Shown here piece after piece: positions 457 through 15,410 of a stretch of 62,167 nt of DNA. Where the stretch lies: positions 1 through 62,167 of the forward strand of contig JBDTQD010000003.1 in assembly GCA_039932375.1 (NCBI GenBank), written 5' to 3'. The notes below the pieces were generated by a model. That model did not search any database. It saw only the letters and a program-made list of their open reading frames with translations, and was not told the DNA's origin. The translations under genes were made by a program, and so were the position numbers. This DNA is from Chloroflexota bacterium (GTDB lineage Bacteria; Chloroflexota; Limnocylindria; QHBO01). The stretch's first letter is position 1. Every line of letters begins with the position of its first letter.

Positions 457-1059
457 TCAGGTCCCCCTCCGTCGCAGGATAGCCTCGGCATGGCGGCGCG
501 TCGTGTCCAGCTCGTCGCGGATGAGTCGCACGGAAAGTGGCGCCACGGCGGACGCCCGGTCGAGGCGCTCGTTGATCTCGGCCCACGTCGCCCGCGGATA
601 GTCGATCCTCGGCGCGACCGGCACCAGCTCACCGGAAGATCGCAACTGCTCGACCAGGGCGACGGGGATCCCGAGGCGCGCAGCCAGCCCCTCCGCCGAT
701 GGCGGCACCGAGCCAGCCTCGCGCAGCGCGTCAATGAGGCGATCGACACGGTCGCGCATGATCGGATCGAGAACGGCCGGGCCATCCGCCAACCGAACTC
801 GGTGCCCCTGGCGCCGCAAGATCCCAGCCGCGACCATGTCGTCGACCACCCCTCGCAGATCGGCGTCACTCAGGCTGAGCGGTCGCTGACCGCGATGGCC
901 GGTGGCTCGCGATGGCTCGGCCGCGCGCAGCTCGGCGACGAGGTTGTCAACGCGCAGGTCCAATCGCAACGGCTCTCGGCGATGGTGCCGGCTCAGCGCT
1001 GCCAGGAGGCGTCGCGCGGCGAGACGCCGCTCGGTGGGATCGATCGGTCCATCGCCCAC
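457..1059 (-). CDS. Stand-alone SelB C-terminal winged-helix-like protein (no GTPase domain)
   Basis: Segments HHRREPLRLDL..AELR, L.EAGSVPPS..L and LSVRLIRDELDTTRRHAEAIL resemble SelB WH1-WH4; 200 aa with no P-loop. Confidence 0.6.
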   Translation of the reverse strand: MGDGPIDPTERRLAARRLLAALSRHHRREPLRLDLRVDNLVAELRAAEPSRATGHRGQRPLSLSDADLRGVVDDMVAAGILRRQGHRVRLADGPAVLDPIMRDRVDRLIDALREAGSVPPSAEGLAARLGIPVALVEQLRSSGELVPVAPRIDYPRATWAEINERLDRASAVAPLSVRLIRDELDTTRRHAEAILRRRGT

Positions 1060-1651: not shown

Positions 1652-2020
1652 ATGCCCCGACGAGGTGGCAAGGCGGCGAACCGCCGCGACCGTCAGCGGC
1701 GCGCCCAGCGCAAGGCATTGCAGCGCCCCGGCGTCCCGGCACGCCCGATCGCGGGGGTCGTCTCGGAAGCCGTGGAGGCCGCCGCCGAGAGCCGCAGCGA
1801 GGCCGCTCCGACCCCGTCGACTGCCCCGGTCCATCGAGCAGCGCGCGCCGACCCGCGCTTCGCCGTGTCCGGTCCCTCGCGCCTCTCAGAGCGGGCAGCG
1901 GCCGAATACCACTACGTGCGCAGCGACCTGCGCAACATCGCGGTGCTGGTGATGGTGATGGCCGTGCTGCTGGCCGCGGCAGTGGTCGCCTTCAGTCTGC
2001 TGAAGATCGGCCCCGGCTGA
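1652..2020 (+). CDS. Small membrane-anchored hypothetical protein
   Basis: Basic N-terminus; C-terminal EYHYVRSDLRNIAVLV...hydrophobic helix. Confidence 0.7.
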   Translation: MPRRGGKAANRRDRQRRAQRKALQRPGVPARPIAGVVSEAVEAAAESRSEAAPTPSTAPVHRAARADPRFAVSGPSRLSERAAAEYHYVRSDLRNIAVLVMVMAVLLAAAVVAFSLLKIGPG

Positions 2021-2049
2021 GGCCAGATCGCGCGGATTTGCAAAAGACC

Positions 2050-2079
2050 TTGCGCCCCGGAATGTGTGTCGCGTAGACT
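2050..2079 (+). promoter_or_regulatory. Sigma70-type promoter pointing into the non-coding region
   Basis: TTGCGC (2050-2055), 18 nt spacer, TAGACT (2074-2079); TAGACT recurs upstream of several genes in this window. Confidence 0.7.
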
Positions 2080-2085
2080 CCGCCG

Positions 2086-2633
2086 TGCCGCTTCAGGGCA
2101 ATGCAAAAGCCGTTATCTGGAGTGGACGGAAAGGTGACCCTCGGAGGCGATTCTGTCGCCACCCTGAGTTACCGCCGGGTGCAGGTGGAGTAGGAGACGG
2201 GGATAAGCTCCCGCCCCAGAACGCGGCAGGCACACTGCCTCCGCCCAGGCGAACGCGAGCGAGCCAAAAGCCCGATCGGCAGTTCGCACGGGATCGTTAC
2301 GGAGGAAAGGGTCAGTCGCGTCGAGGCAACGATCGGGACCGGCCGCGCGGCCTTCGGGCCGTGTCAGTAATCCGATCGAACCGGCCTACGGTTCCAGGTT
2401 CAGTGGAGTGGGATCCACTGGGCGGCTCTACAGACGAGGAGCCGCGACAACCAGCTTGACCGGCTCTGGCGGCCGCGGGTCTGCACTGCTTACGCGGACC
2501 TGAGGTTCCAGTCAGCGGGCCAGGCGAGACGTCTGAGGTTCGTTCGTCGCCGCGGGCTTACCACCCAACGCTGATGAGCGATTCGACGAGGGTCTGAGAG
2601 TTCCCGCAAGGGGGCAATCAGGCCCTCACGTCG
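2086..2633 (+). ncRNA. Putative large structured non-coding RNA, family unassigned
   Basis: ~700-nt gap with no credible ORF, own promoter, and more than ten consecutive helices readable by eye, including C(UUCG)G (2348-2361) and GCAA-tetraloop (2603-2612) hairpins. Confidence 0.7.
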
Positions 2634-2719
2634 TTTCCAGCCGTCGCGCCTGTGCCGCCGGGCGTGGCTTCCGTCGCAGCACCTGCCAGATCAGCGAACT
2701 TGCCCTCAGCGACACCCTC

Positions 2720-3850
2720 TTACCCAGGAACCTGGGCCTCTTCCCACGTTTGACCGCCGTCGATGGTCGAGAAGAGACGGTCAATCTCGAAACATTGGGA
2801 CTTGCCACTCAAGCACCCATTCTGAGTCACGACGGCCCAGCCCGCACTAGCGCTCGTGAACCGGAGACGGATCCCTCCGAGCGGCAGACCGTTCGGACTG
2901 ATCGGTGCAAGTGATCGGCCGGCTGCCGTTACGGCGAACAGGCCGCCGGCGGGGCTGGCGACCACCACCCGATCGCCAGCTCGTGACATCGGGAGCGCTC
3001 CCGGTCCCGAGTCTCCCCCGACGGCCACGAGCGTCACTTGCCGCCAAGTTGCCCCGTCGTCGGTGCTCGTCAGCCATGCTTCCTGGGTGGCCGGCCCGTC
3101 GATCGTCACGGGCAGCAGCAGACGGTCCGCCACGCGCTGCGGGGCGCTTACCCCGATCTCCAGGCCCGCTGGAAATGGCAGGCGCACCTCGCTCCACGTC
3201 AGGCCTGCATCGGCGCTCCGCCACAGGCGCTCTCCGAGGACGCCGCCCGCCAGCCACAGCGCGTCAGCGCCAGTGATGCTCACCATTCCGGCAGCCGGCG
3301 CTGGGCGACGCTCGAAGACACCGCCCTGTCGAGACACGAACAGGTCAGCCTGCGAGAAGTTCGAGCTGGTCGTCTGCACCACCTGCGCGACCAGCAGGGT
3401 GTCGCTTGCGGCGAGCCGAACGTCACCCGGCTGACCATGGGTCTGGAGGCGCGATTCCTGCCAACGCAGCCCGCCGTCGAGACTGGTGCGTACCACCGCG
3501 TCCAGACTATCGGCGCCCCCCAGGCTCGCCAGCACGAGATGCTGCGTACCCAGCACGAGGAGCGCCCGAACCCCCGCCACGTCTGCGCCAGCAACGGCCT
3601 TCCAACTCTGACCGCCGTCGGTGGTGGCCAGCAGCGCCTGGTCGGTGACGATCCACGCCGTCGTTTGATCGACGGCATCGAAGGCCAGTATGAGCGGGCC
3701 ACTGGCCGGCGGCGTTTCGGTGGGCGAGGCAGCGCCGACGGATGGGGTCATGCTGTAGATGACCCCCGGCGCCACATGCGCGCAAGCGGACAGCAGCAAC
3801 GTGCCGAGAACGAACCCGCCGAGGAGCGTTGGATGCCGCATATGCTTCAT
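2720..3850 (-). CDS. Lipoprotein with BNR/Asp-box repeats (beta-propeller, Ycf48-like)
   Basis: Signal peptide with lipobox LSAC; repeats TTDGGQSW, SLDGGLRW, SADAGLTW, STDDGATW, TIDGGQTW. Confidence 0.8.
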   Translation of the reverse strand: MKHMRHPTLLGGFVLGTLLLSACAHVAPGVIYSMTPSVGAASPTETPPASGPLILAFDAVDQTTAWIVTDQALLATTDGGQSWKAVAGADVAGVRALLVLGTQHLVLASLGGADSLDAVVRTSLDGGLRWQESRLQTHGQPGDVRLAASDTLLVAQVVQTTSSNFSQADLFVSRQGGVFERRPAPAAGMVSITGADALWLAGGVLGERLWRSADAGLTWSEVRLPFPAGLEIGVSAPQRVADRLLLPVTIDGPATQEAWLTSTDDGATWRQVTLVAVGGDSGPGALPMSRAGDRVVVASPAGGLFAVTAAGRSLAPISPNGLPLGGIRLRFTSASAGWAVVTQNGCLSGKSQCFEIDRLFSTIDGGQTWEEAQVPG

Positions 3851-3893
3851 GGGTATCCATTGTCGGTATGGCACGTGTGGCTCTCTGACCTGG

Positions 3894-5228
3894 CTACTGA
3901 GGGCCGCGCCGGCCTTCTAGGCGCGCGCGACGCAGCCGTCCCAGCCGCTCGCCGATCTGCTTCTCGAGGCCCTGATCGGACGGCTCGTAATAGACACGCC
4001 CGGCAAGCGCGTCCGGCAGGTACTGCTGGTCGACATCGGCTTCGTCGAAGTCGTGCGGGTAGAGGTAGCCCTTGCCGTAGCCATGCTCTTTCGCCAGCCG
4101 GCGATGCGACGACGGGCGCAGGTGCAGCGGGACCGGCAGCCGTCCGCGCTCCTCCACATCGGCCAGCGCCGCGAAGTAGGCGCCGCCGGCTCGGTTCGAC
4201 TTCGGCGCGGAGGCAATGTAGGCGGCGGCCTGGGCAAGGGCGTACTGGGCCTCGGGCAGGCCGATCATCTCCACGGCCTGCATGGCAGCCACCGCCACCT
4301 GCAGCGCCCGCGGATCGGCGTTGCCGACGTCCTCGCTGGCCGCGATCACGATCCGCCGCGCGATGAAGGTCGGATCCTCCCCCGCCGCGACCATGCTGGC
4401 GCACCAGTAGAGAGCGGCGTCTGGATCATTGCCCCGCATGCTCTTGATGAAGGCCGATGCCGCCTCGTAGTGCTGGTCGCCGACCCGATCGTAGGCGAGC
4501 AGCCGCTGCTGCGACGCCTCGGCGATGGCCTCGCGGCTGAGCGGCCCGCTCTTCCCGGCCACGGCGGCCGCGGACTCCAGGATATTCAGGGCCTGACGCG
4601 CGTCGCCGCTCGACAGCTCGAGCAGCGCGGTCATCCCCTCCTCGGAGATCGCGACATTGCCGCCCAGCCCGCGCTCGTCGCCAAGCGCGAGGTCCACGAT
4701 CTTCCGCACCGCCTCTTCGCCGAGCGGCTCGAGCCGATAGACCCGCAGGCGCGACAGGAGCGGCGAGTTGATCTCGTAGTACGGGTTCTCGGTGGATGCT
4801 GCAATAAGCCGGATGGTGCCGTCCTCGACGTAGGGCAGCAGCGCATCCTGCTGGGCCTTGTTGAACCTGTGGATCTCGTCAATGAACAGCACGGTCATGA
4901 CCCCAGCGGTCCGTGCCTCTTTGGCCTCGGCGAACAGCTTGCGCAGGTCAGCGACTCCACTGGTCACCGCGCTGATCTGATGCCAGGCACCTCCAGCCCG
5001 CTCTGCGAGCAGCCGGGCGAGCGTCGTCTTCCCTGATCCCGGTGGGCCCCAAAGCATGATGCTAGGCAGGAAACCGGGTTGCACGACACGGGAGAGGGCA
5101 CCGTCCTCACCAACCAGGTGTGTCTGGCCCACGAACTCGGACAGGTCGCGCGAGCGCATTCTTGCGGCGAGCGGTGCGTCGGTTGCCGGCTCCTCCCTGA
5201 ACAGCGGGTCGGTGAGGTTCACGGGCAT
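3894..5228 (-). CDS. rarA: Replication-associated recombination protein A (RarA/MgsA AAA+ ATPase), full length
   Basis: PLAARMR, GPPGSGKTT, FIDEIHRFNKAQQD, ASTENP, GDARQALN, SAFIKSMRGNDPDAALYW, ASEDVGNADP, HGYGKGYLYPHD. Confidence 0.95.
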   Translation of the reverse strand: MPVNLTDPLFREEPATDAPLAARMRSRDLSEFVGQTHLVGEDGALSRVVQPGFLPSIMLWGPPGSGKTTLARLLAERAGGAWHQISAVTSGVADLRKLFAEAKEARTAGVMTVLFIDEIHRFNKAQQDALLPYVEDGTIRLIAASTENPYYEINSPLLSRLRVYRLEPLGEEAVRKIVDLALGDERGLGGNVAISEEGMTALLELSSGDARQALNILESAAAVAGKSGPLSREAIAEASQQRLLAYDRVGDQHYEAASAFIKSMRGNDPDAALYWCASMVAAGEDPTFIARRIVIAASEDVGNADPRALQVAVAAMQAVEMIGLPEAQYALAQAAAYIASAPKSNRAGGAYFAALADVEERGRLPVPLHLRPSSHRRLAKEHGYGKGYLYPHDFDEADVDQQYLPDALAGRVYYEPSDQGLEKQIGERLGRLRRARLEGRRGPQ

Positions 5229-5264
5229 GAACAGCATGATGACTCAGAGAGGATCAGGCGGGGT

Positions 5265-6131: not shown

Positions 6132-7724
6132 TCAGCCAGCGCCACCAACAGGCGCCAGGGCAAACAGCTGCCACTCGCCCGGCACACCTTTGAACTTGTG
6201 CCGGCCTCGATCATGCAGCCCGAGATCCCTGCCTGGCAACGCTTCACCCAAGGCCTCAGAGATAAGGATCTCCCCGTCCGCTGCGGAAGCCATGATCCGA
6301 GCTGCCGCGTGCACCTCGATGCCGCTGACCTTTTCGCCCCGCATCTCGCACTCGCCGAGGTGGAGGCCTGTTCGTGTCTGAAGACTGAGCTCATCGACGG
6401 CTACGCGGATCGCCCGCGCGCAGCTAACGCCCGAGCTTGGCTGGTCGAACGTGGCGAAGAAGGCATCGCCCGCTGTATCGACTTCGTGGCCACCCGTCCG
6501 CGCGAGCTCCTTGCGGACGGCCGCGCGATAGCGGCCGAGAAGCATCCGCCAGCGCTCATCGCCCAGCTCGACGATGCGCTCGGTGGAGCCCACGATATCG
6601 GTGAACAGCAGGGTCAGCAGTGCCCGACCCGGCAGGAGGCGATCGACGACCGGGCGCACGCGTCGACGCATCGGTCCGTACGCCACCGCCACCCCAACGC
6701 CCAGCGCACCAGTCAGTAATTCGGACCGCTGTCCGGTGAGCGACTCCAGCATCCGCTGCAAGCCGATGTTGGCGACGCCAAAGGCGGCCAGCAGCACAAC
6801 CGTGACGCTGCCGTCGAGAACGGTGCGGTTGATGATCGTGTCGATCTCGTAGAGGCGGTAACGCAGCACCGCCACCCCGATGGCGAGCGGGACGGTTGGA
6901 AACGCGATGACCGCTGGAATCCAGACCAGCTCGCTTGTTCCTGCGGCTGGCAGCAGCCGTCCGACCACGAAGCCGCCCAGCACAGCGATGACCACAAAGG
7001 CCAGGGCGGCGGCCACCCAACTGAGCTGCTGGCGCTCGATGCCCCGTGCACGTCGCAGGCGCACGATGATCGAGACGACGCCAAGGGCCAGCAGGGCTGC
7101 GAGAAGCGGGAACCCGGCTCCGGTGATGGTTTCCCAGATCGGAGCAGCCGGGAAGATGGCGAGGGGGTTCGCGATGTCCACGCCAGCTTGTGATTGCGAG
7201 AGGCTCACGTTCAGGGTCGGACCAAAGGCGTTGAGAATGACGGCCACGCACGCGAGGCCAATCGCCACACGAGCCGGCGTCTCCCACCTTCCGTGGGGCA
7301 GCCGCCCGCTCGGAAACACGATCAGCAGGATGAAAAGAAGCGTGAACGCTGGCAGGCCGCCGAGGGCGCCGCTCGCGATTGCCATGGCTTCGGTCGCGAG
7401 GGGTACGGTCCTGGTCGCGAACTGCGCGGGGGTCGCATCCACGCTGGCTAAAGCAAGCGCGAAACACCAGCCAATCGCGAACAGGATCCAGCCAATCGAG
7501 TTCCTTGGCCTCCGCACAACGAGGATGCAGGCAACCAGTGTGTAGGGGACGTAGATCAGAATCCCGGGGGGGCTCTGCACTGCGATGACTAGCCCCAAGA
7601 AGGCGGCCACCGCCACCGCCGCCTGCGCGACGCGGGGCAGCGAGGGCGTGATCACGAGGCTGTCCGGCGCGGCGCGCTCGGTCAGGGAAGCACCATTCCG
7701 CCTCATCCGCTCATCCGCGCCCAT
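6132..7724 (-). CDS. Membrane-bound class III adenylate/guanylate cyclase
   Basis: Multi-TM N-terminal region (..RRARGIERQQLSW.., YRLYEID); C-terminal FTDIVGST, DTAGDAFF, RTGLHLGE, GIEVHAAARI. Confidence 0.85.
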   Translation of the reverse strand: MGADERMRRNGASLTERAAPDSLVITPSLPRVAQAAVAVAAFLGLVIAVQSPPGILIYVPYTLVACILVVRRPRNSIGWILFAIGWCFALALASVDATPAQFATRTVPLATEAMAIASGALGGLPAFTLLFILLIVFPSGRLPHGRWETPARVAIGLACVAVILNAFGPTLNVSLSQSQAGVDIANPLAIFPAAPIWETITGAGFPLLAALLALGVVSIIVRLRRARGIERQQLSWVAAALAFVVIAVLGGFVVGRLLPAAGTSELVWIPAVIAFPTVPLAIGVAVLRYRLYEIDTIINRTVLDGSVTVVLLAAFGVANIGLQRMLESLTGQRSELLTGALGVGVAVAYGPMRRRVRPVVDRLLPGRALLTLLFTDIVGSTERIVELGDERWRMLLGRYRAAVRKELARTGGHEVDTAGDAFFATFDQPSSGVSCARAIRVAVDELSLQTRTGLHLGECEMRGEKVSGIEVHAAARIMASAADGEILISEALGEALPGRDLGLHDRGRHKFKGVPGEWQLFALAPVGGAG

Positions 7725-8038
7725 GACGTTGACTCCAGGGCGCGGATATCGGCGACGCCGCTGGTGACGGCAGAGATCGGACGCCAGGTGCCACCCGACC
7801 GATCTGCGAGGAGGCGAGCCAGGGTCGTCTTGCCCGAGCCGGGCGGCCCCCACAGCACCATGCTCGGCGCAAACCCGGGCTGCACCACCTTGGTCAGGGC
7901 GCCATCGGGCCCCACCAGGTGCTCCTGGCCGATGAACTCCTCCAGGGTGCGGGGCCGCATTCGGGCCGCGAGCGGCGCATCGCTCGCCGGCCGGTCGGCG
8001 AAGAGGGGCTCGGTGACGGTCGGCGGCTTACGCGGCAT
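7703..8038 (-). pseudogene. rarA: Truncated 5' fragment of rarA (about 100 codons)
   Basis: MPRKPPTVTEPLF...PLAARMRPRTLEEFIGQEHLVG...GPPGSGKTTLARLLA...ISAVTSGVADIR, after which homology ends at about 7742 and a stop follows. Confidence 0.9.
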
Positions 8039-8072
8039 CGGTCCGTTCCATCGGCCGATTATGATGCCCGCC

Positions 8073-9233
8073 ATGGACCAGAACCTGCGCGTCCCCGGGC
8101 CAACGCCCCTCCCCGACGAGGTGCGAGAGGCGCAATCGGCGCCGATGATCGACCACCGCGGCACCGAGTTCGGCGAGATGCTGCGCGAGATCACAACCGG
8201 GATTGCCGAGCTGATCGGAACGCGCGGCGAGGTCCTGCTGCTGACGGGCTCGGGGTCGGGAGCGCTCGAGGCCGCCGTGGTCAACACCCTCTCGCCGGGT
8301 GACCGTGCCCTGGTCGTCACCATCGGCGCATTTGGCGATCGGTTCGCTAAGATCGCCTCCGCCTTCGGGGCCGATGTCGAGCGCTTCGAGGCGCCATGGG
8401 GCCACGCCGCGGACCCCACCGCGCTGCGTGAGCACCTGGCGGCGAATCCCCCATACCGCGCCGTGCTGGTGACGCATAACGAGACCTCGACGGGGGTGAC
8501 CAACCCGCTGCGCGAGCTCGCTGGCGTCGTTCACGGCGCTCCCGGGAAGCCGCTGCTGGTGGTCGACGGCATCAGCGGGCTCGGGGCGATGCCCTTCGAG
8601 ATGGACGCGTGGGGAATCGACCTGGTGGTGAGCGCATCCCAGAAGGCCTGGATGGGATCGCCCGGAATCGCCATCGCGGCGGTCGGAGCGCGCGCCTGGG
8701 GCGCGGCCGAGACGGCCCGTATGCCGCGCGTCTACTGGGATTTCGCCGAGGCGCGCAAGTGGGCGGAGAAGGGCCAGACGCCGTGGACCCCGGCGGTCAG
8801 CGTCCTGTACGGCTTGCGGGTCGGCGTGCGGCGCCTCGTGGCCGAGGGGCGCGAGCGCACATGGGCGAGGCATGCGGCCATCGCCGCGGCGGTGCAGGCC
8901 GGCCTCGAGGGGCTCGGCCTCGAGCTTGTGGCGGCACCTGAAGATCGCTCCATCACGGTGACTGCGGCCTGGCTGCCAGGCGGCCTGGAGTGGGGGCCGT
9001 TCAACGCCGCCATGCGCGGCAAGGGGCTGATCGTGGCCGGCGGCCAGGGGGCGTGGGTGGGCCGCATCCTGCGCTTCGGCCACATGGGCGGGGTGGGGAT
9101 CGACGAGATGTGCGACGCGATGCGCGTGATGGGCGAGACGCTCAACGAGTTGGGGCGTCCAGCGGATACCGCCGCCGCGGTGCGGGCCATGAAGGGGATC
9201 TTCGAAGCGAGGTTGGCCGCCGCCGTCGGCTGA
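8073..9233 (+). CDS. Class V PLP aminotransferase (alanine-glyoxylate/serine-pyruvate family)
   Basis: PGPTP, HNETSTGV, VVDGISG, SASQKAW (PLP Lys), RFGHMG; TATGAT at 8060-8065 suggests a leaderless start at 8073. Confidence 0.9.
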   Translation: MDQNLRVPGPTPLPDEVREAQSAPMIDHRGTEFGEMLREITTGIAELIGTRGEVLLLTGSGSGALEAAVVNTLSPGDRALVVTIGAFGDRFAKIASAFGADVERFEAPWGHAADPTALREHLAANPPYRAVLVTHNETSTGVTNPLRELAGVVHGAPGKPLLVVDGISGLGAMPFEMDAWGIDLVVSASQKAWMGSPGIAIAAVGARAWGAAETARMPRVYWDFAEARKWAEKGQTPWTPAVSVLYGLRVGVRRLVAEGRERTWARHAAIAAAVQAGLEGLGLELVAAPEDRSITVTAAWLPGGLEWGPFNAAMRGKGLIVAGGQGAWVGRILRFGHMGGVGIDEMCDAMRVMGETLNELGRPADTAAAVRAMKGIFEARLAAAVG

Positions 9234-11530: not shown

Positions 11531-12787
11531 TCAGGCACGTGTCCGCTCCCGGATGGCGGAGCCGCGAACACCGAGCGCCTTCCGGCCCAGGACCGTCGAC
11601 AGATCGTCGCCGGCGCGGACCAGGTGGTAACCGATGTCGTATTCGGCAAGCGCGTGACGCATGGCACCCAGCTCAGCGCGGCTCTCGTCGTCGTCGCGCC
11701 CTTCAAAGCTGAAGCGGTCGAGGAGCACCACGAAGGTGCCGATTCCCCTCCGTCGCAACGTGGCGGCGGCCCGCACCCACTCACGGTTGGTCGAGCCGGT
11801 GACGATCCCGAGGGTCATGCCGCGCCGGAGCTGCGGCATGGTGGCGACCACGACCTCGGCGAGTGGCGTCTGACCATCGGCCTGCACGTTCGCCAGCAGG
11901 TTCAGGATCTTCTGCTCGACGCGCGTCCCGCGATCGGGCGTCAGATGCTGCTGGCGCCGAGAGGTGACGGTGATCCCCACTGCGCGGTTCTCGCCCAGGG
12001 TGTGGACCGCAATCGAGGCGGCCGCGCTGATGCCGGTCTCGACGGCGGCCGACTCGGATGGACCGGCATTCGCCGAGCGATCGAGGTCCAGCATGAGCCA
12101 CAGGTCGGCCGCCTGCTCGAGGTCGAACTCCTTCACGTGCAGCTCACCATGGCGCACGGAGCTGAGCCAGTGGATCCGGTTGATCCCATCGCCATAGACG
12201 TAAGGACGCACAGTGCTGACCAATGGTGTCGCCGCCTCGTAGCGACGCCGCGACGGCGTGGTGCCATCCACCGGCGAGGGGGGTAGCCGCCAGTGCGGCA
12301 GCGAGTGGACCTTGGGGAAGACGACGATCCAGGTCGGACGCCCGACCACCATCTCGCTGGTGAAGAGCCCAAACGGATCGCCGGTGCGCACCCGGAGGGC
12401 GCCGAGCCGGTAGCTGCCCCGCCGCAGCAGCGCCGCCTTGGCGAGCCATTGACGGCTTCCGCGTCCGGCCAACCCAAGTACCCGGCCTGGGAGCGGCGCT
12501 GGCAGGGTCGACTCGTTTGAGACTTCGATCCAGGGCTTCCTCCAGCTGGTGTCGTTGTCGACGCGATAGACCGCCTCCAGCACGTCGCCTACCTGGGTCC
12601 GCGGATTGACGACGTGGTAGCCGGCCCGGAGGCCTCGCAGGCCGCGGCGCGCATACCAGCGCGAGGCGAGCAGGAGCGTGGCCAGCAGGTAGACCAGGAA
12701 GAAGAGGAAGTTGATCCCGGTGCTGAAGGCGGCGACCACCAGCGCCGTGCCGAAGAAGACCAGGCGAAGCTGCCGGGAGAGGCCCAT
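11531..12787 (-). CDS. DUF58 domain protein
   Basis: RRGSYRLG.L..RTGDPFGLF, VRPYVYGD..NRIHW.SS, VKEFD, LMLD; MoxR operon context. Confidence 0.9.
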   Translation of the reverse strand: MGLSRQLRLVFFGTALVVAAFSTGINFLFFLVYLLATLLLASRWYARRGLRGLRAGYHVVNPRTQVGDVLEAVYRVDNDTSWRKPWIEVSNESTLPAPLPGRVLGLAGRGSRQWLAKAALLRRGSYRLGALRVRTGDPFGLFTSEMVVGRPTWIVVFPKVHSLPHWRLPPSPVDGTTPSRRRYEAATPLVSTVRPYVYGDGINRIHWLSSVRHGELHVKEFDLEQAADLWLMLDLDRSANAGPSESAAVETGISAAASIAVHTLGENRAVGITVTSRRQQHLTPDRGTRVEQKILNLLANVQADGQTPLAEVVVATMPQLRRGMTLGIVTGSTNREWVRAAATLRRRGIGTFVVLLDRFSFEGRDDDESRAELGAMRHALAEYDIGYHLVRAGDDLSTVLGRKALGVRGSAIRERTRA

Positions 12788-12796
12788 GGCCGTGGA

Positions 12797-13798
12797 CTAC
12801 CGGGCGCCGGCGGCCGCGCTGCTGGTCGGCTGCCCGATCGGGACCTGGGCGAGCACCTCGCGCACGATCCCGTCGGGATCGACCTCGCGCAGCGATGCCT
12901 GGCTCTTGACGATGAGCCGATGCCCGAGGACGGCCACGGCGAGCAGCTTGATGTCATCGGGGATCACGAAGTCACGCCCGTCGATCGAGGCCAGCGCCTG
13001 TCCGGCGCGGTACAGGTTGATCGATCCGCGCGGCGAGGCGCCGAGATACACGTCTGCGTGCTCACGAGTGGCTCCCACCAGCCGCACGATGTACTCCGCC
13101 ACCGTCTGATCGACGTAGATCTCCTTGATAGCCGACTGCATCAGGCGCAGCTCCTCGAGGTCGAGCACCTGGTGCAGCTCCTCGATCGGGTGACGGCGCT
13201 TCTGCTCGTCGAGGATGACGATCTCCTCCATCGCCTTCGGGTAGCCGAGGCGCAGGCGCAGCATGAATCGGTCCAGCTGCGCTTCCGGCAGGGCAAAGGT
13301 CCCTTCGTACTCGATCGGGTTCTGGGTGGCGATCACCAGGAACGGCGACGGCATCATGTGGCTGACGCCGTCGATCGTCGCCTGTCGCTCCTCCATGCAC
13401 TCGAGCAGGGCGCTCTGCGTCTTGGGCGTTGCGCGGTTGATCTCATCGGCCAGGACCACCTGGGCCATGATCGGGCCGGGCCGGAACTCGAACTCCTGGG
13501 TCTTCTGGTTGAAGATCGACAGCCCGGTCACGTCCGAGGGCAGGAGGTCGGGCGTGAACTGGATGCGACGGAACGAACAGCCGATGCTGCGGCTGAGCGC
13601 CTTGGCCAGCATCGTCTTGCCGACGCCGGGCACGTCCTCGATCAGGATGTGCCCCTCGCACAGCAGCGCCACCAGCGCCATTCGGACTTCGACGTGCTTC
13701 CCGACGATGACGCGCTCGACGTTGGCGACGACGCGCTCTGCCGACTCCTGGACGCTCTTCACGTTTTGGCTTCCCCTGCTCGCTGGTTGGGCCGTCAT
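12797..13798 (-). CDS. MoxR-family AAA+ ATPase
   Basis: [64 protein letters not shown]. Confidence 0.95.
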
Positions 13799-13865
13799 TC
13801 CCCTCGTGCACAATACCTTAGGCAGGGCCAGATCGGTTCACCAGCCATCGGTCAGCCTGCGGTGG

Positions 13866-15410
13866 TCAGCCTCCTGCGGCCAGCTTCAACCATTCGGCCA
13901 TCACCGCTCCCCCGATCGGGGCGGCATGTCCCGAGCCTGTGCCGCCTCCCTCCACGATCACCGCGATCGCGATCGACGGGGTCGCGCCGTCCTGCGCAGG
14001 AGCAAAGCCGATGAACCAGGAATGGGGCTTCAGCCCGGGCCCGCGTTCGGCGGTCCCCGTCTTGCCGGCCGTCTCGATGCCTGACACCCCGAACCGCGCG
14101 ACCGCCCCGGCGCCCGCGTAGAGGCGCCCGATCGGGCCCTGCACGGCGTCGATCATCGCGGAGCGCACCTCTCTCGCAGCCTGCGACGAGATGGCGGGAC
14201 GAGCGCCCTCTCCGCCGTATATCTCGAGCACGGCTGCCGTCGGACCGCCCTGCGGGGCCGCCGCGTGGGTGCGCAGGTCGCGCACGATGAACGGACCCGG
14301 CACCGCGCCGTCATTGGCGATGGTCGCCGCCAGGAGGGCCATCTGCAACGGCGTCACCGATACGCGGGCCTGCCCGAAAGCGGCGCTGGCCAGCTCCACG
14401 TTGTCAGAGAACGGAGCGCAGCCGCCGTCTGACTGGCCGGAGACGTAGGATGGGTCGACCGGCAACGCGCGTGGGTCGCTGCCGATCTGGAGGGGGGCGC
14501 AGAATCCGAATCGGCGCGCGTAGTCGAGGTACCGATCCGGGCCCAGCCCCAGGCCGACGTGGGCGAAGAAGATGTTGCTCGAGACCTGCAGTGCCGGAGA
14601 GAGCGCCCAGAGCGCCGGCTTGACCGGCTGGAGGTCGTGCTCCCGGATCGTGAAGCCCTGCACCACGAATCCATCGACCTCCTGCTTCGGCTGGTCGGGG
14701 AATGTCGTCTGGGGCGTGATGGCGCCTGCGTCCAGCGCGCCGGCGGCGGTCAGGACCTTGAGGATCGAGCCGGGGGTGTAGTGACCCTGGCGGACCCGAT
14801 CCAGGAACGGATTGCCGGCCGCACCTGCAACGGCGTCAAACGGCCCCGTGGCGGTGGCGGGGTCGCCGGAGAAGCCGGTGGGGTCGTACGTCGGGGAGGA
14901 GACCATGGCGAGGATGGCGCCGGTGCGCGGGTCGATGGCGACCACCGCGCCCACGTTGTGCCCCAGCTGCGCGGCCGCGAAATCCTCCAGCCGCCGGTCG
15001 ATCGTCAGCGTGAGGTCGTGCGGATCCGGCTGACGGGCCAGGATGTCGTTCAGCAGGTCGCGCAGCGGATTTGGATCGCTGCGGCCGGTGAGCAGGTCAT
15101 CCCATGTCCGCTCGAGGCCGGTCGCCCCGAAGCGGAGGCTGGCGTAGCCGATCAGATGCGTGAAGGCCGGGTCGGCGTATGTTCTCCGGCTGATCCCGTC
15201 CAACACTGTGCTCGATGCGAGGAGCCTTCCTTGAGCATCGAAGATCGAGCCGCGCGGCAGGCTGCGGCGGGCGGCGATCACCTGCGGGTTGTCCTGGCGC
15301 GTGGCGAGCGCATGCGCATCGAGGACCTGCCACCACGCGAGTGCGCCCGACACGCTCGCGAAGCCAAGCACCAGGTAAAGCGAGAGGCGGCGGATGTTGG
15401 TGGCGATCAT
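13866..15410 (-). CDS. Class B penicillin-binding protein (PbpA-like transpeptidase)
   Basis: SxxK (GSILK), SxN (SSN), KTG (GKTGT), HSWF; follows rodA. Confidence 0.9.
   Translation of the reverse strand: MIATNIRRLSLYLVLGFASVSGALAWWQVLDAHALATRQDNPQVIAARRSLPRGSIFDAQGRLLASSTVLDGISRRTYADPAFTHLIGYASLRFGATGLERTWDDLLTGRSDPNPLRDLLNDILARQPDPHDLTLTIDRRLEDFAAAQLGHNVGAVVAIDPRTGAILAMVSSPTYDPTGFSGDPATATGPFDAVAGAAGNPFLDRVRQGHYTPGSILKVLTAAGALDAGAITPQTTFPDQPKQEVDGFVVQGFTIREHDLQPVKPALWALSPALQVSSNIFFAHVGLGLGPDRYLDYARRFGFCAPLQIGSDPRALPVDPSYVSGQSDGGCAPFSDNVELASAAFGQARVSVTPLQMALLAATIANDGAVPGPFIVRDLRTHAAAPQGGPTAAVLEIYGGEGARPAISSQAAREVRSAMIDAVQGPIGRLYAGAGAVARFGVSGIETAGKTGTAERGPGLKPHSWFIGFAPAQDGATPSIAIAVIVEGGGTGSGHAAPIGGAVMAEWLKLAAGG

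Follow-up and report, generated by a model that had tools for sequence, protein, structure and literature searches.

The window, i.e., the whole stretch of 62,167 nucleotides that was analyzed, carries near its left end a gap between two protein-coding genes at positions 2021 to 2719, delimited by the stop codon of a gene encoding a 122-amino-acid (aa) protein on one side and by the stop codon of a convergent gene encoding a BNR-repeat protein on the other (Table 1). According to our analysis, this gap harbors the gene of a large structured RNA, read on the forward strand. The 122-aa protein, for which no Pfam family was found, has an arginine-rich N terminus and a membrane helix at its C terminus, i.e., it is a basic, tail-anchored protein, and its other neighbor is a DUF4446 gene encoding a membrane protein. 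The gene order common to relatives comprises a uvrD-like helicase, a 200-aa protein, DUF4446, the 122-aa protein, a variable slot, and rarA; where the RNA is present, it always lies 3′ of the 122-aa gene and in the same orientation. In total, 19 full-length copies of the RNA were identified (nhmmer E values of the homologues, 1e-170 to 1e-191), of which 15 are distinct. They represent approximately eight lineages, are 79 to 89% identical to each other, and all derive from contigs of Candidatus Limnocylindria, where they occupy the same slot after the 122-aa gene.

An earlier note on this DNA had claimed that the gap contains no credible open reading frame (ORF), that it begins with a promoter, and that it encodes a transcribed large noncoding RNA (ncRNA), possibly of a new class, and had named Rfam searches, comparison of homologues, and metatranscriptome coverage as the ways to check this. 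The first of these claims agrees with our analysis, as the largest ORF in the gap lacks both a Pfam match and conservation; the others are dealt with below.

TABLE 1 Genes, promoter elements, and RNA domains at the locus (positions in the window)
Feature	Position	Strand	Remarks
DUF4446 gene	1073-1834	−	Neighbor; membrane protein
122-aa protein gene	1652-2020	+	Upstream neighbor; stop codon bounds the gap
A-rich tract, UP-element-like	2041-2046	+	Directly upstream of the −35 hexamer
−35 hexamer TTGCGC	2050-2055	+	TTGAC(C/T/G) in most homologues; position conserved
ORF, 131 aa	2064-2459		Largest in the gap; no Pfam match; not conserved
−10 hexamer TAGACT	2074-2079	+	Kept by 14 of the 15 distinct homologues; L003 has TACACT
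RNA gene, predicted primary transcript	2087-2640	+	Start predicted from the −10 hexamer, end from the limit of conservation
5′ domain, two hairpin arms, helices 1 to 5	2088-2173	+	Compensatory changes in helices 1, 2, 3, and 5
Dominant 5′ fragment ends	2096-2102	+	Metatranscriptome contigs with adapter abutting the RNA
Central multibranch domain, eight hairpin arms	2174-2464	+	Closed by 2174-2186/2450-2464 (RNAalifold)
Most conserved core (…GGGAUCGUUACGGAGGAAAGGGUCAG..GCGUCGAGGCAACGAUCGGGACCGG…)	2289-2346	+	Nearly invariant in 15 homologues
Variable arm, helices 18 and 19	2468-2509	+	Compensatory changes
3′ domain	2520-2640	+	Helix 2520-2532/2628-2640 encloses the 2537-2584 arm and terminal hairpin 2587-2627
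BNR-repeat gene, 384 aa	2720-3874	−	Convergent; stop codon bounds the gap downstream

Promoter, transcript boundaries, and abundance

The two hexamers TTGCGC and TAGACT and the 18-nucleotide (nt) spacer between them are exactly as the earlier note had described them, and the −35 hexamer of the homologues features TTGAC. In the alignment of homologues, the spacer keeps its length while its sequence varies, and tracts of the AAAAT/ATTTT type are found at the equivalent of positions 2041 to 2046 in all lineages, in a region of 65 to 75% G+C, from which we infer that the A-rich tract contributes to promoter strength. A scan with the consensus promoter misses this promoter in the window, where the −35 hexamer is too weak, and in homologue L081 it finds TTGACT-18-TAGACT, against 0.0 matches expected. 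Judged from these conserved elements, the RNA is transcribed from its own predicted sigma-70-type promoter, consisting of the A-tract, a TTGAC-like −35 hexamer, 18 nt, and TAGACT.

The limits of the gene emerge from the same alignment, which displays the conserved A-tract and −35 hexamer, the skipped spacer, TAGACT, and then conserved sequence from TGCCGC (2086) through CACGUCGUUCC (approximately 2640). Across the 15 homologues, this conservation ends with CACGTCGTT(T/C)CC at approximately 2640, and the flanks are unrelated. A scan for U-tract terminators gave none for this gene, which ends with a long 3′ hairpin. Fragment ends marked by an abutting adapter lie, on the 5′ side, at the equivalent of 2096 in X10 (on L084:8604) and at 2102 in X17 and X31, with further metatranscriptome contigs beginning at 2103 to 2104, and, on the 3′ side, near 2582 (X10) and near 2597 (X11). 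The 5′ ends at 2096 to 2102 could be the result of 5′ processing or of a reverse-transcription stop, and the abundant RNA species may have lost some sequence at either end compared with the primary transcript predicted here. An RNA beginning at 2096 to 2102 would lack the 5′ strand of helix 1, so that the mature form may differ from the transcript modeled here.

At least 24 metatranscriptome runs contain 31-mers of the RNA; these runs stem from at least 12 studies and cover soil, plant-associated, freshwater, and sediment samples. Contigs 80 to 99% identical to the window span approximately 2102 to 2586, with nothing on either side, and the whole contigs measure 465 to 532 nt. Expression was assessed on assembled contigs of relatives, which carry no strand information, and on this rough measure of abundance, the word depth of the RNA contigs reaches approximately 2,000 to 3,000; in X11, it amounts to approximately 2,800 for the RNA versus 4 to 6 for the upstream gene. 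Likewise, when the first 20 kb were inspected in X12 at ≥95% identity in bins of 667 bases, the bin of the RNA showed a depth of 199.9, most others showed 0 to 0.9, and the next-highest value was 11 (positions 12674 to 14007), whereas in X8 and X14 the RNA bin reached 15.5 and 18.6, respectively, versus approximately 0 for the other bins. Overall, the depth of the RNA is roughly 200 to 500 times that of neighboring genes, and the RNA accumulates far above the neighboring mRNAs. Many metatranscriptomes thus contain relatives of the RNA in high abundance, and their coverage does not extend beyond the RNA, as the proposal of a transcribed ncRNA had anticipated.

These boundaries and depths bear on whether the RNA might be a cis element, i.e., the 3′ untranslated region (UTR) of the 122-aa gene or the leader or riboswitch of a downstream operon such as that of the 297-aa ORF and EamA in L093. 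Its constant position and orientation behind the 122-aa gene speak for such an arrangement, as does the co-directional 297-aa ORF that begins approximately 57 nt past the RNA in L093 to L096. However, a conserved promoter proper to the RNA separates it from the upstream stop codon, the RNA is covered hundreds of times more deeply than the upstream gene, and the contigs end at its borders. Moreover, approximately 1 kb lies between the upstream gene and the RNA in L082, L085, and L086, and at least seven of the eight lineages have a convergent gene, either rarA or the BNR gene, on the downstream side. We deem a cis element very improbable.

Structure, coding potential, and search for known RNA families

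Positions 2086 to 2640 of the forward strand fold at −269.5 kcal/mol, well below dinucleotide shuffles (z = −4.4), whereas the fold of the reverse strand is not better than shuffles (z = −1.3). The RNAalifold consensus of the 15 sequences comprises 164 pairs in 24 helices, and 98.2% of its 2,460 pair cells are standard. In 19 pairs both sides have changed, versus 10.2 ± 1.7 in shuffles (none of the 500 reached 19), a control that related sequences can exceed without any structure; stronger support is given by slid controls, in which the partners are shifted by 1 to 3 columns and only 1 to 6 compensatory pairs result, versus the real 19. At least one compensatory pair occurs in 12 of the 24 helices, and wobble pairing is reflected in 343 G-U cells and in 47 pairs that vary through G-U. 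Because G-U variation is plentiful and the consensus structure imposed on the reverse complement leaves only 84.8% of the cells paired, the RNA strand is the forward one. With a sample of approximately eight lineages at 79 to 89% identity, covariation neither supports nor contradicts the invariant helices of the core.

In the consensus model, the RNA is organized in three domains, namely, a pair of arms at the 5′ end, a central multibranch domain built around a near-invariant core, and a 3′ domain with a hairpin. The helix closing the central domain is kept in all sequences, with alternation between G-C and G-U at one pair; within the domain, helices 10, 14, 15, and 16 show compensatory changes and helices 7 to 9, 11, 13, and 17 are invariant. 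In several runs, the core is the best-aligning part of the more distant metatranscriptome relatives or the only one that aligns at ≥80%. The variable arm is replaced in one metatranscriptome relative, which has 74 other letters in place of 2446 to 2521. The terminal hairpin (helices 23 and 24) carries a GCAA loop at 2606 to 2609 and differs among lineages in both sequence and loop, with the pairing kept. Compensatory changes are also seen directly in expressed relatives, at 2349/2360, 2350/2359, and 2379-2380/2392-2393.

Many of the helices drawn in the earlier note recur in this model. Across the 15 homologues, compensatory changes were found in ggtgac/gttacc with its inner ggcga/tcgcc, in the C(UUCG)G hairpin, in aaccg/cggtt, in cagtgga/tccactg, in ggtctgc/gcggacc, and in the 3′ stem, while aggca/tgcct, cgatcgg/ccgatcg, and gcggctc/gagccgc are present and invariant. 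Two helices are not supported: tctgg/ccaga has one pair broken in 9 of the 15 homologues, and the long-range aagcccg/cgggctt helix undergoes uncompensated changes in L083 and L115. The fourth pair of ggtt/aacc, the helix closing the proposed three-way junction, is unsupported as well. The pairings ggcga/tcgcc (2523/2547) and cgct/agcg are possible alternatives to the consensus pairing. A search for extra helices or pseudoknots by pairwise covariation gave no usable result, as eight lineages yield too many chance pairs, and stacks that pair in all sequences are invariant candidates only. Two loop complementarities (2204-2208/2488-2492 and 2190-2194/2385-2389) and the palindrome (C)GAUCG, of which the RNA contains three copies, are conserved and invariant, and they are candidates only for tertiary or intermolecular contacts.

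When we inspected the homologues for a conserved reading frame, none was open throughout. Single-base insertions or deletions affect 18 alignment columns, and the 194 variable columns are spread over the three codon phases as 62, 68, and 64, i.e., without 3-base periodicity. The helices are thus kept through compensatory and G-U changes and a reading frame is not, which is how the comparison of homologues named in the earlier note turned out. High-G+C DNA admittedly folds well by chance and abounds in spurious ORFs, such as that at 2064 to 2459, so that a decayed coding gene or a nonfunctional spacer might simulate a structured RNA. This explanation is practically negligible, considering that identity of 79 to 89% is retained next to intergenic flanks that cannot be aligned, that the helices vary in a compensatory and wobble manner, that the stability of the fold is limited to one strand, that frame and codon periodicity are missing, and that the transcript is very abundant. 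The RNA represents neither a leader or UTR nor an antisense RNA or the remnant of a coding gene.

Searches with Rfam 15 at gathering scores returned two tRNAs only over the whole window. In the interval from 1950 to 2800, permissive filters with E values up to 10 gave no family match but three hits at chance level, corresponding to a plant-virus element, Pseudomon-Rho, and a trypanosome snoRNA. The Rfam covariance models had no match at an E value of <5 on four homologues (L081, L089, L096, and L116) either, and ARAGORN detected no tRNA or transfer-messenger RNA (tmRNA) between 1500 and 3500. Since Rfam 15 and ARAGORN identify nothing at the RNA locus and Rfam is blank on the four homologues, the RNA is not recognizable as RNase P RNA, tmRNA, 6S RNA, signal recognition particle (SRP) RNA, OLE, ROOL, GOLLD, raiA, HEARO, or an intron, in line with the earlier note, which could not match it to tmRNA, RNase P, SRP, 6S, or introns. 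A hammerhead, to which CUGAUGAG at 2571 to 2578 had drawn attention, was rejected, since no GAA follows a stem II on inspection by eye and Rfam has no match. No paper pairing Limnocylindria with a structured RNA was found in the literature searched. The suggestion of a new class, made with reserve in the earlier note, stands relative to Rfam 15 and the papers searched.

RNase P RNA deserves closer comparison. Like the RNA described here, it is abundant, stable, multidomain, and a few hundred nt long, with A-rich conserved linkers, and two elements of our RNA superficially recall it, i.e., GGAGGAAAG (2302-2310) its CR-I and AAAGCCCG/CGGGCUUA (2267-2274/2553-2560) its helix P4. In contrast to RNase P RNA, however, the RNA has no match to the models RF00010 and RF00011, its P4-like helix (2268-2274/2553-2559) is paired in 83.8% and breaks without compensation in the two homologues mentioned above, its 5′ and 3′ ends are unpaired in the consensus where RNase P has helix P1, and many close relatives lack it at the syntenic locus. 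An identity with RNase P RNA is rejected on the grounds of the missing model match and of the P4-like helix not being kept. The models of tmRNA (RF00023), 6S RNA (RF00013), and SRP RNA (RF00169 and RF01854) also remained without a match. 6S and SRP RNAs measure about 100 to 270 nt, and the RNA measures approximately 500 to 555 nt.

Distribution and history of the RNA

Relatives of the DUF4446 gene fetched from species genomes provided 80 loci, nearly all from Candidatus Limnocylindria or Chloroflexota, among which the RNA was present in L003 only, with 87% identity over the RNA and flanks that cannot be aligned. The gaps of L007 and L009 resemble coding sequence on the opposite strand, and in L001 and L004 the slot is occupied by ORFs. 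For a location-blind scan of metagenome contigs, a core pattern was chosen from 2300 to 2346, the most conserved part according to the metatranscriptome contigs placed on the window. It gave six matches, each of them full-length and all six in the same slot. Homologues of the 122-aa protein, together with 12 contig look-ups, added four more RNA-bearing lineages. The core pattern had no match in 2.9 million viral contigs, and the core covariance model R1 (159 positions), applied to 916 kb of related loci and to the window, recovered the known copy only, with the next-best hit at an E value of 0.2, i.e., no second copy of the RNA was found in the window or in the related loci.

Loci that share the flanking genes fall into three groups, with the RNA, the RNA together with other genes, or no RNA in the slot. 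The BNR gene accompanies the RNA in the window, and the 297-aa ORF and EamA accompany it in L093. Where the RNA is missing, the slot contains an ORF of 300 to 305 aa (L004, L090, L098, and L102), a glyoxalase-type gene (L113), or DinB (L117), and in L097 the two flanking genes lie 106 nt apart. No remnants of the RNA were found in these RNA-less loci, where the alignment is limited to the end of the upstream gene. In a tree built from the DUF4446 and 122-aa proteins, loci with the RNA are interspersed with loci that lack it, and the similarity groups of the RNA follow this tree. As far as these sequences allow one to judge, the simplest history would be vertical descent with several losses within one small clade of Candidatus Limnocylindria. 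Conservation of the 122-aa protein does not depend on whether a genome has the RNA at this site, and a dedicated pairing of the two is therefore not supported.

This distribution weighs on two further explanations of the RNA. The first, a divergent housekeeping RNA (RNase P RNA, tmRNA, 6S RNA, or SRP RNA) missed by the Rfam models, would account for its abundance, its stability, and its length of a few hundred nt, properties that RNase P RNA and tmRNA also show in metatranscriptomes, as well as for the CR-I-like and P4-like resemblances. Against it are the blank models and ARAGORN result, the failing P4-like helix and unpaired ends described above, the lack of the RNA at this locus in relatives that are just as close, and the recovery of the core pattern from six metagenome contigs only, far fewer than a universal RNA should give in a class that is abundant in soil. 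We consider this explanation extremely improbable, and since close relatives sharing the flanking genes have no RNA at the locus and it was apparently lost repeatedly, it is probably an accessory rather than a housekeeping RNA.

The second explanation is an RNA belonging to a mobile or defense element, for example, a guide or ωRNA-like RNA, a retron-type RNA, or a prophage RNA such as ROOL or GOLLD. Its presence is all or none, RNA-less relatives being free of remnants, and the slot between the 122-aa gene and rarA holds differing cargo genes among genomes, as might be expected of such an element. On the other hand, no transposase, reverse transcriptase, integrase, or nuclease gene adjoins the RNA at any locus, terminal repeats are absent, each locus has a single copy with none elsewhere in the window, the viral contigs are devoid of the core pattern, and the agreement between the groups of the RNA and the tree of the flanking genes fits vertical descent. 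We deem an origin of this kind very improbable. In the contigs and loci searched, the occurrence in a single slot, with neither a second nor a viral copy, argues against a housekeeping RNA and a mobile element alike.

Comparison with known large RNAs and possible roles

Taken together, positions 2087 to 2640 of the forward strand very probably constitute an independent gene for a large, stable, structured ncRNA of an undescribed family. The Rfam searches, the helix changes among homologues, and the metatranscriptome coverage all favor the transcribed large ncRNA put forward in the earlier note. The RNA exhibits the features of the descriptive class of large ornate bacterial ncRNAs, with a length of approximately 555 nt, 24 helices of which 12 show compensatory changes, no coding capacity, a promoter of its own, and high abundance.

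Within this class, OLE RNA (RF01071) has several traits in common with our RNA: both are products of stand-alone genes, abundant, approximately 550 to 610 nt long, and endowed with covarying helices and conserved junction sequences, and both are confined to one bacterial group and adjacent to the gene of a small membrane protein, and our RNA, like OLE, is probably nonessential. However, the OLE covariance model has no match on the window at the gathering score or at an E value of <10. Moreover, OLE occurs in anaerobic or extremophilic Bacillota and has a partner of the oapA/B/C type, whereas our RNA is found in Chloroflexota (Candidatus Limnocylindria) beside DUF4446 and a 122-aa protein without a Pfam family, and its membrane-protein neighbor persists where the RNA is missing. 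ROOL (RF03087) and GOLLD (RF01998) are likewise large, ornate, patchily distributed, and highly expressed bacterial RNAs. As far as is known, they form RNA-only homo-oligomeric bodies by means of kissing loops and A-minor contacts (PMC12286853), and the RNA described here features candidate loop-loop complementarities and three (C)GAUCG palindromes. It differs from them in that their covariance models have no match on the window or on the four homologues and in that it resides at a fixed chromosomal locus, its core pattern being without a match in viral contigs. In addition, ROOL and GOLLD often lie in prophages or beside tRNA genes, whereas no tRNA was detected between 1500 and 3500 and the loci of our RNA have no phage genes.

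By analogy with OLE, ROOL, and GOLLD, it is conceivable, and we put this forward tentatively, that the RNA acts as a compact scaffold. The invariant nucleotides of junctions and loops would build a defined three-dimensional body, which would have a protein or other copies of the same RNA as its binding partner, and such a scaffold would not act by base-pairing with mRNAs. More specific proposals are rather unlikely, i.e., that the RNA is part of a membrane ribonucleoprotein, a Chloroflexota counterpart of OLE-OapA held by the arginine-rich N terminus of the 122-aa protein, or that it self-assembles into a homo-oligomer through loop-loop and palindromic GAUC contacts. The DUF4446 membrane protein and the SelB-like winged-helix protein of 200 aa encoded at 457 to 1059 might also belong to such a membrane ribonucleoprotein. 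The reading as a membrane ribonucleoprotein is weakened because the cluster of protein genes is equally conserved in RNA-less genomes. Regarding self-assembly, OLE, ROOL, and GOLLD form RNA-only homo-oligomers, and in 2025 several large ornate RNAs proved to be RNA-only assemblies of an unprecedented kind (PMC12286853).

Besides being abundant, the RNA is clearly delimited as a gene, is preceded by a promoter, and has a secondary structure that can be tested, and at approximately 550 nt it is small enough for in vitro transcription, chemical probing, and cryo-electron microscopy without culture of its host. Carriers and noncarriers are closely related and differ at one fixed site, and comparing them is therefore a natural way to search for its function. 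To our knowledge, bacteria have few large structured RNAs apart from the ribosomal and the universal ones. OLE, GOLLD, ROOL, raiA, and HEARO have each opened a separate line of work. The RNA described here adds a class from Limnocylindria, an abundant and uncultured lineage of soil and freshwater, in which it ranks among the most abundant host transcripts in field samples.

Gene content between the 122-aa gene and rarA

According to our comparison of the window with the related loci (L001 to L118), the slot separating the 122-aa gene from rarA is a hot spot of gene turnover in this clade. Its contents differ by genome, and consist of the structured RNA, a BNR-repeat gene, an open reading frame (ORF) of 297 to 305 aa without a family, EamA, glyoxalase-type genes, or DinB, while in some genomes the slot is empty. 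In L111, a relative without the RNA, it contains a tandem repeat (positions 3460 to 3700 of that locus) with a unit of about 21 nt, GGCAGGTGCCTTCTT…, overlain on the opposite strand by a short predicted ORF with a high content of Lys, Ala, and Pro.

Features of the window discussed in this section
Feature	Position	Strand	Remarks
200-aa protein	457-1059	-	clusters with DUF4446 and the 122-aa gene; cluster conserved
122-aa tail-anchored protein	1652-2020	+	Pfam family: none
Slot	2021-3893		
RNA arm with helices 18 and 19	2446-2521	+	
Complete rarA	3894-5237	-	
ORF ending in rarA-like sequence	7703-8503	-	
Second transcribed region	12674-14007		

Flanking protein genes

The 122-aa protein, for which 237 metagenome homologues were found, has a strongly conserved arginine-rich N terminus, MARRGGKAANRRDRQRKAQRR, and a conserved EYHYVxxDLRNI motif preceding its membrane helix; the protein is conserved both at loci where the RNA gene comes next and at loci that lack it. 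A Pfam search with the 200-aa protein at E<0.01 gave no match, and a faint SelB winged-helix domain (PF09106) is listed in a precomputed table for the homologous locus L097. The ORF at 7703-8503 ends in about 90 residues that are a second copy of N-terminal sequence from rarA (…GPPGSGKTTLARLLA…SAVTSGVADIR), located some 2.5 kb upstream of the full-length rarA gene.

Metatranscriptome contigs and the variable RNA arm

Within the first 20 kb, metatranscriptome contigs reach an appreciable depth at just one place besides the RNA. This second transcribed region, presumably a conserved, well-expressed protein gene, has a depth of up to 85 in run X20 and 11 in run X12. In one metatranscriptome relative of the RNA, a 304-nt contig from run X28, a 74-nt arm at 2446-2521 is swapped for 74 unrelated letters. 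Since the sequence flanking it is retained on both sides, the arm carrying helices 18 and 19 looks like an exchangeable peripheral module.
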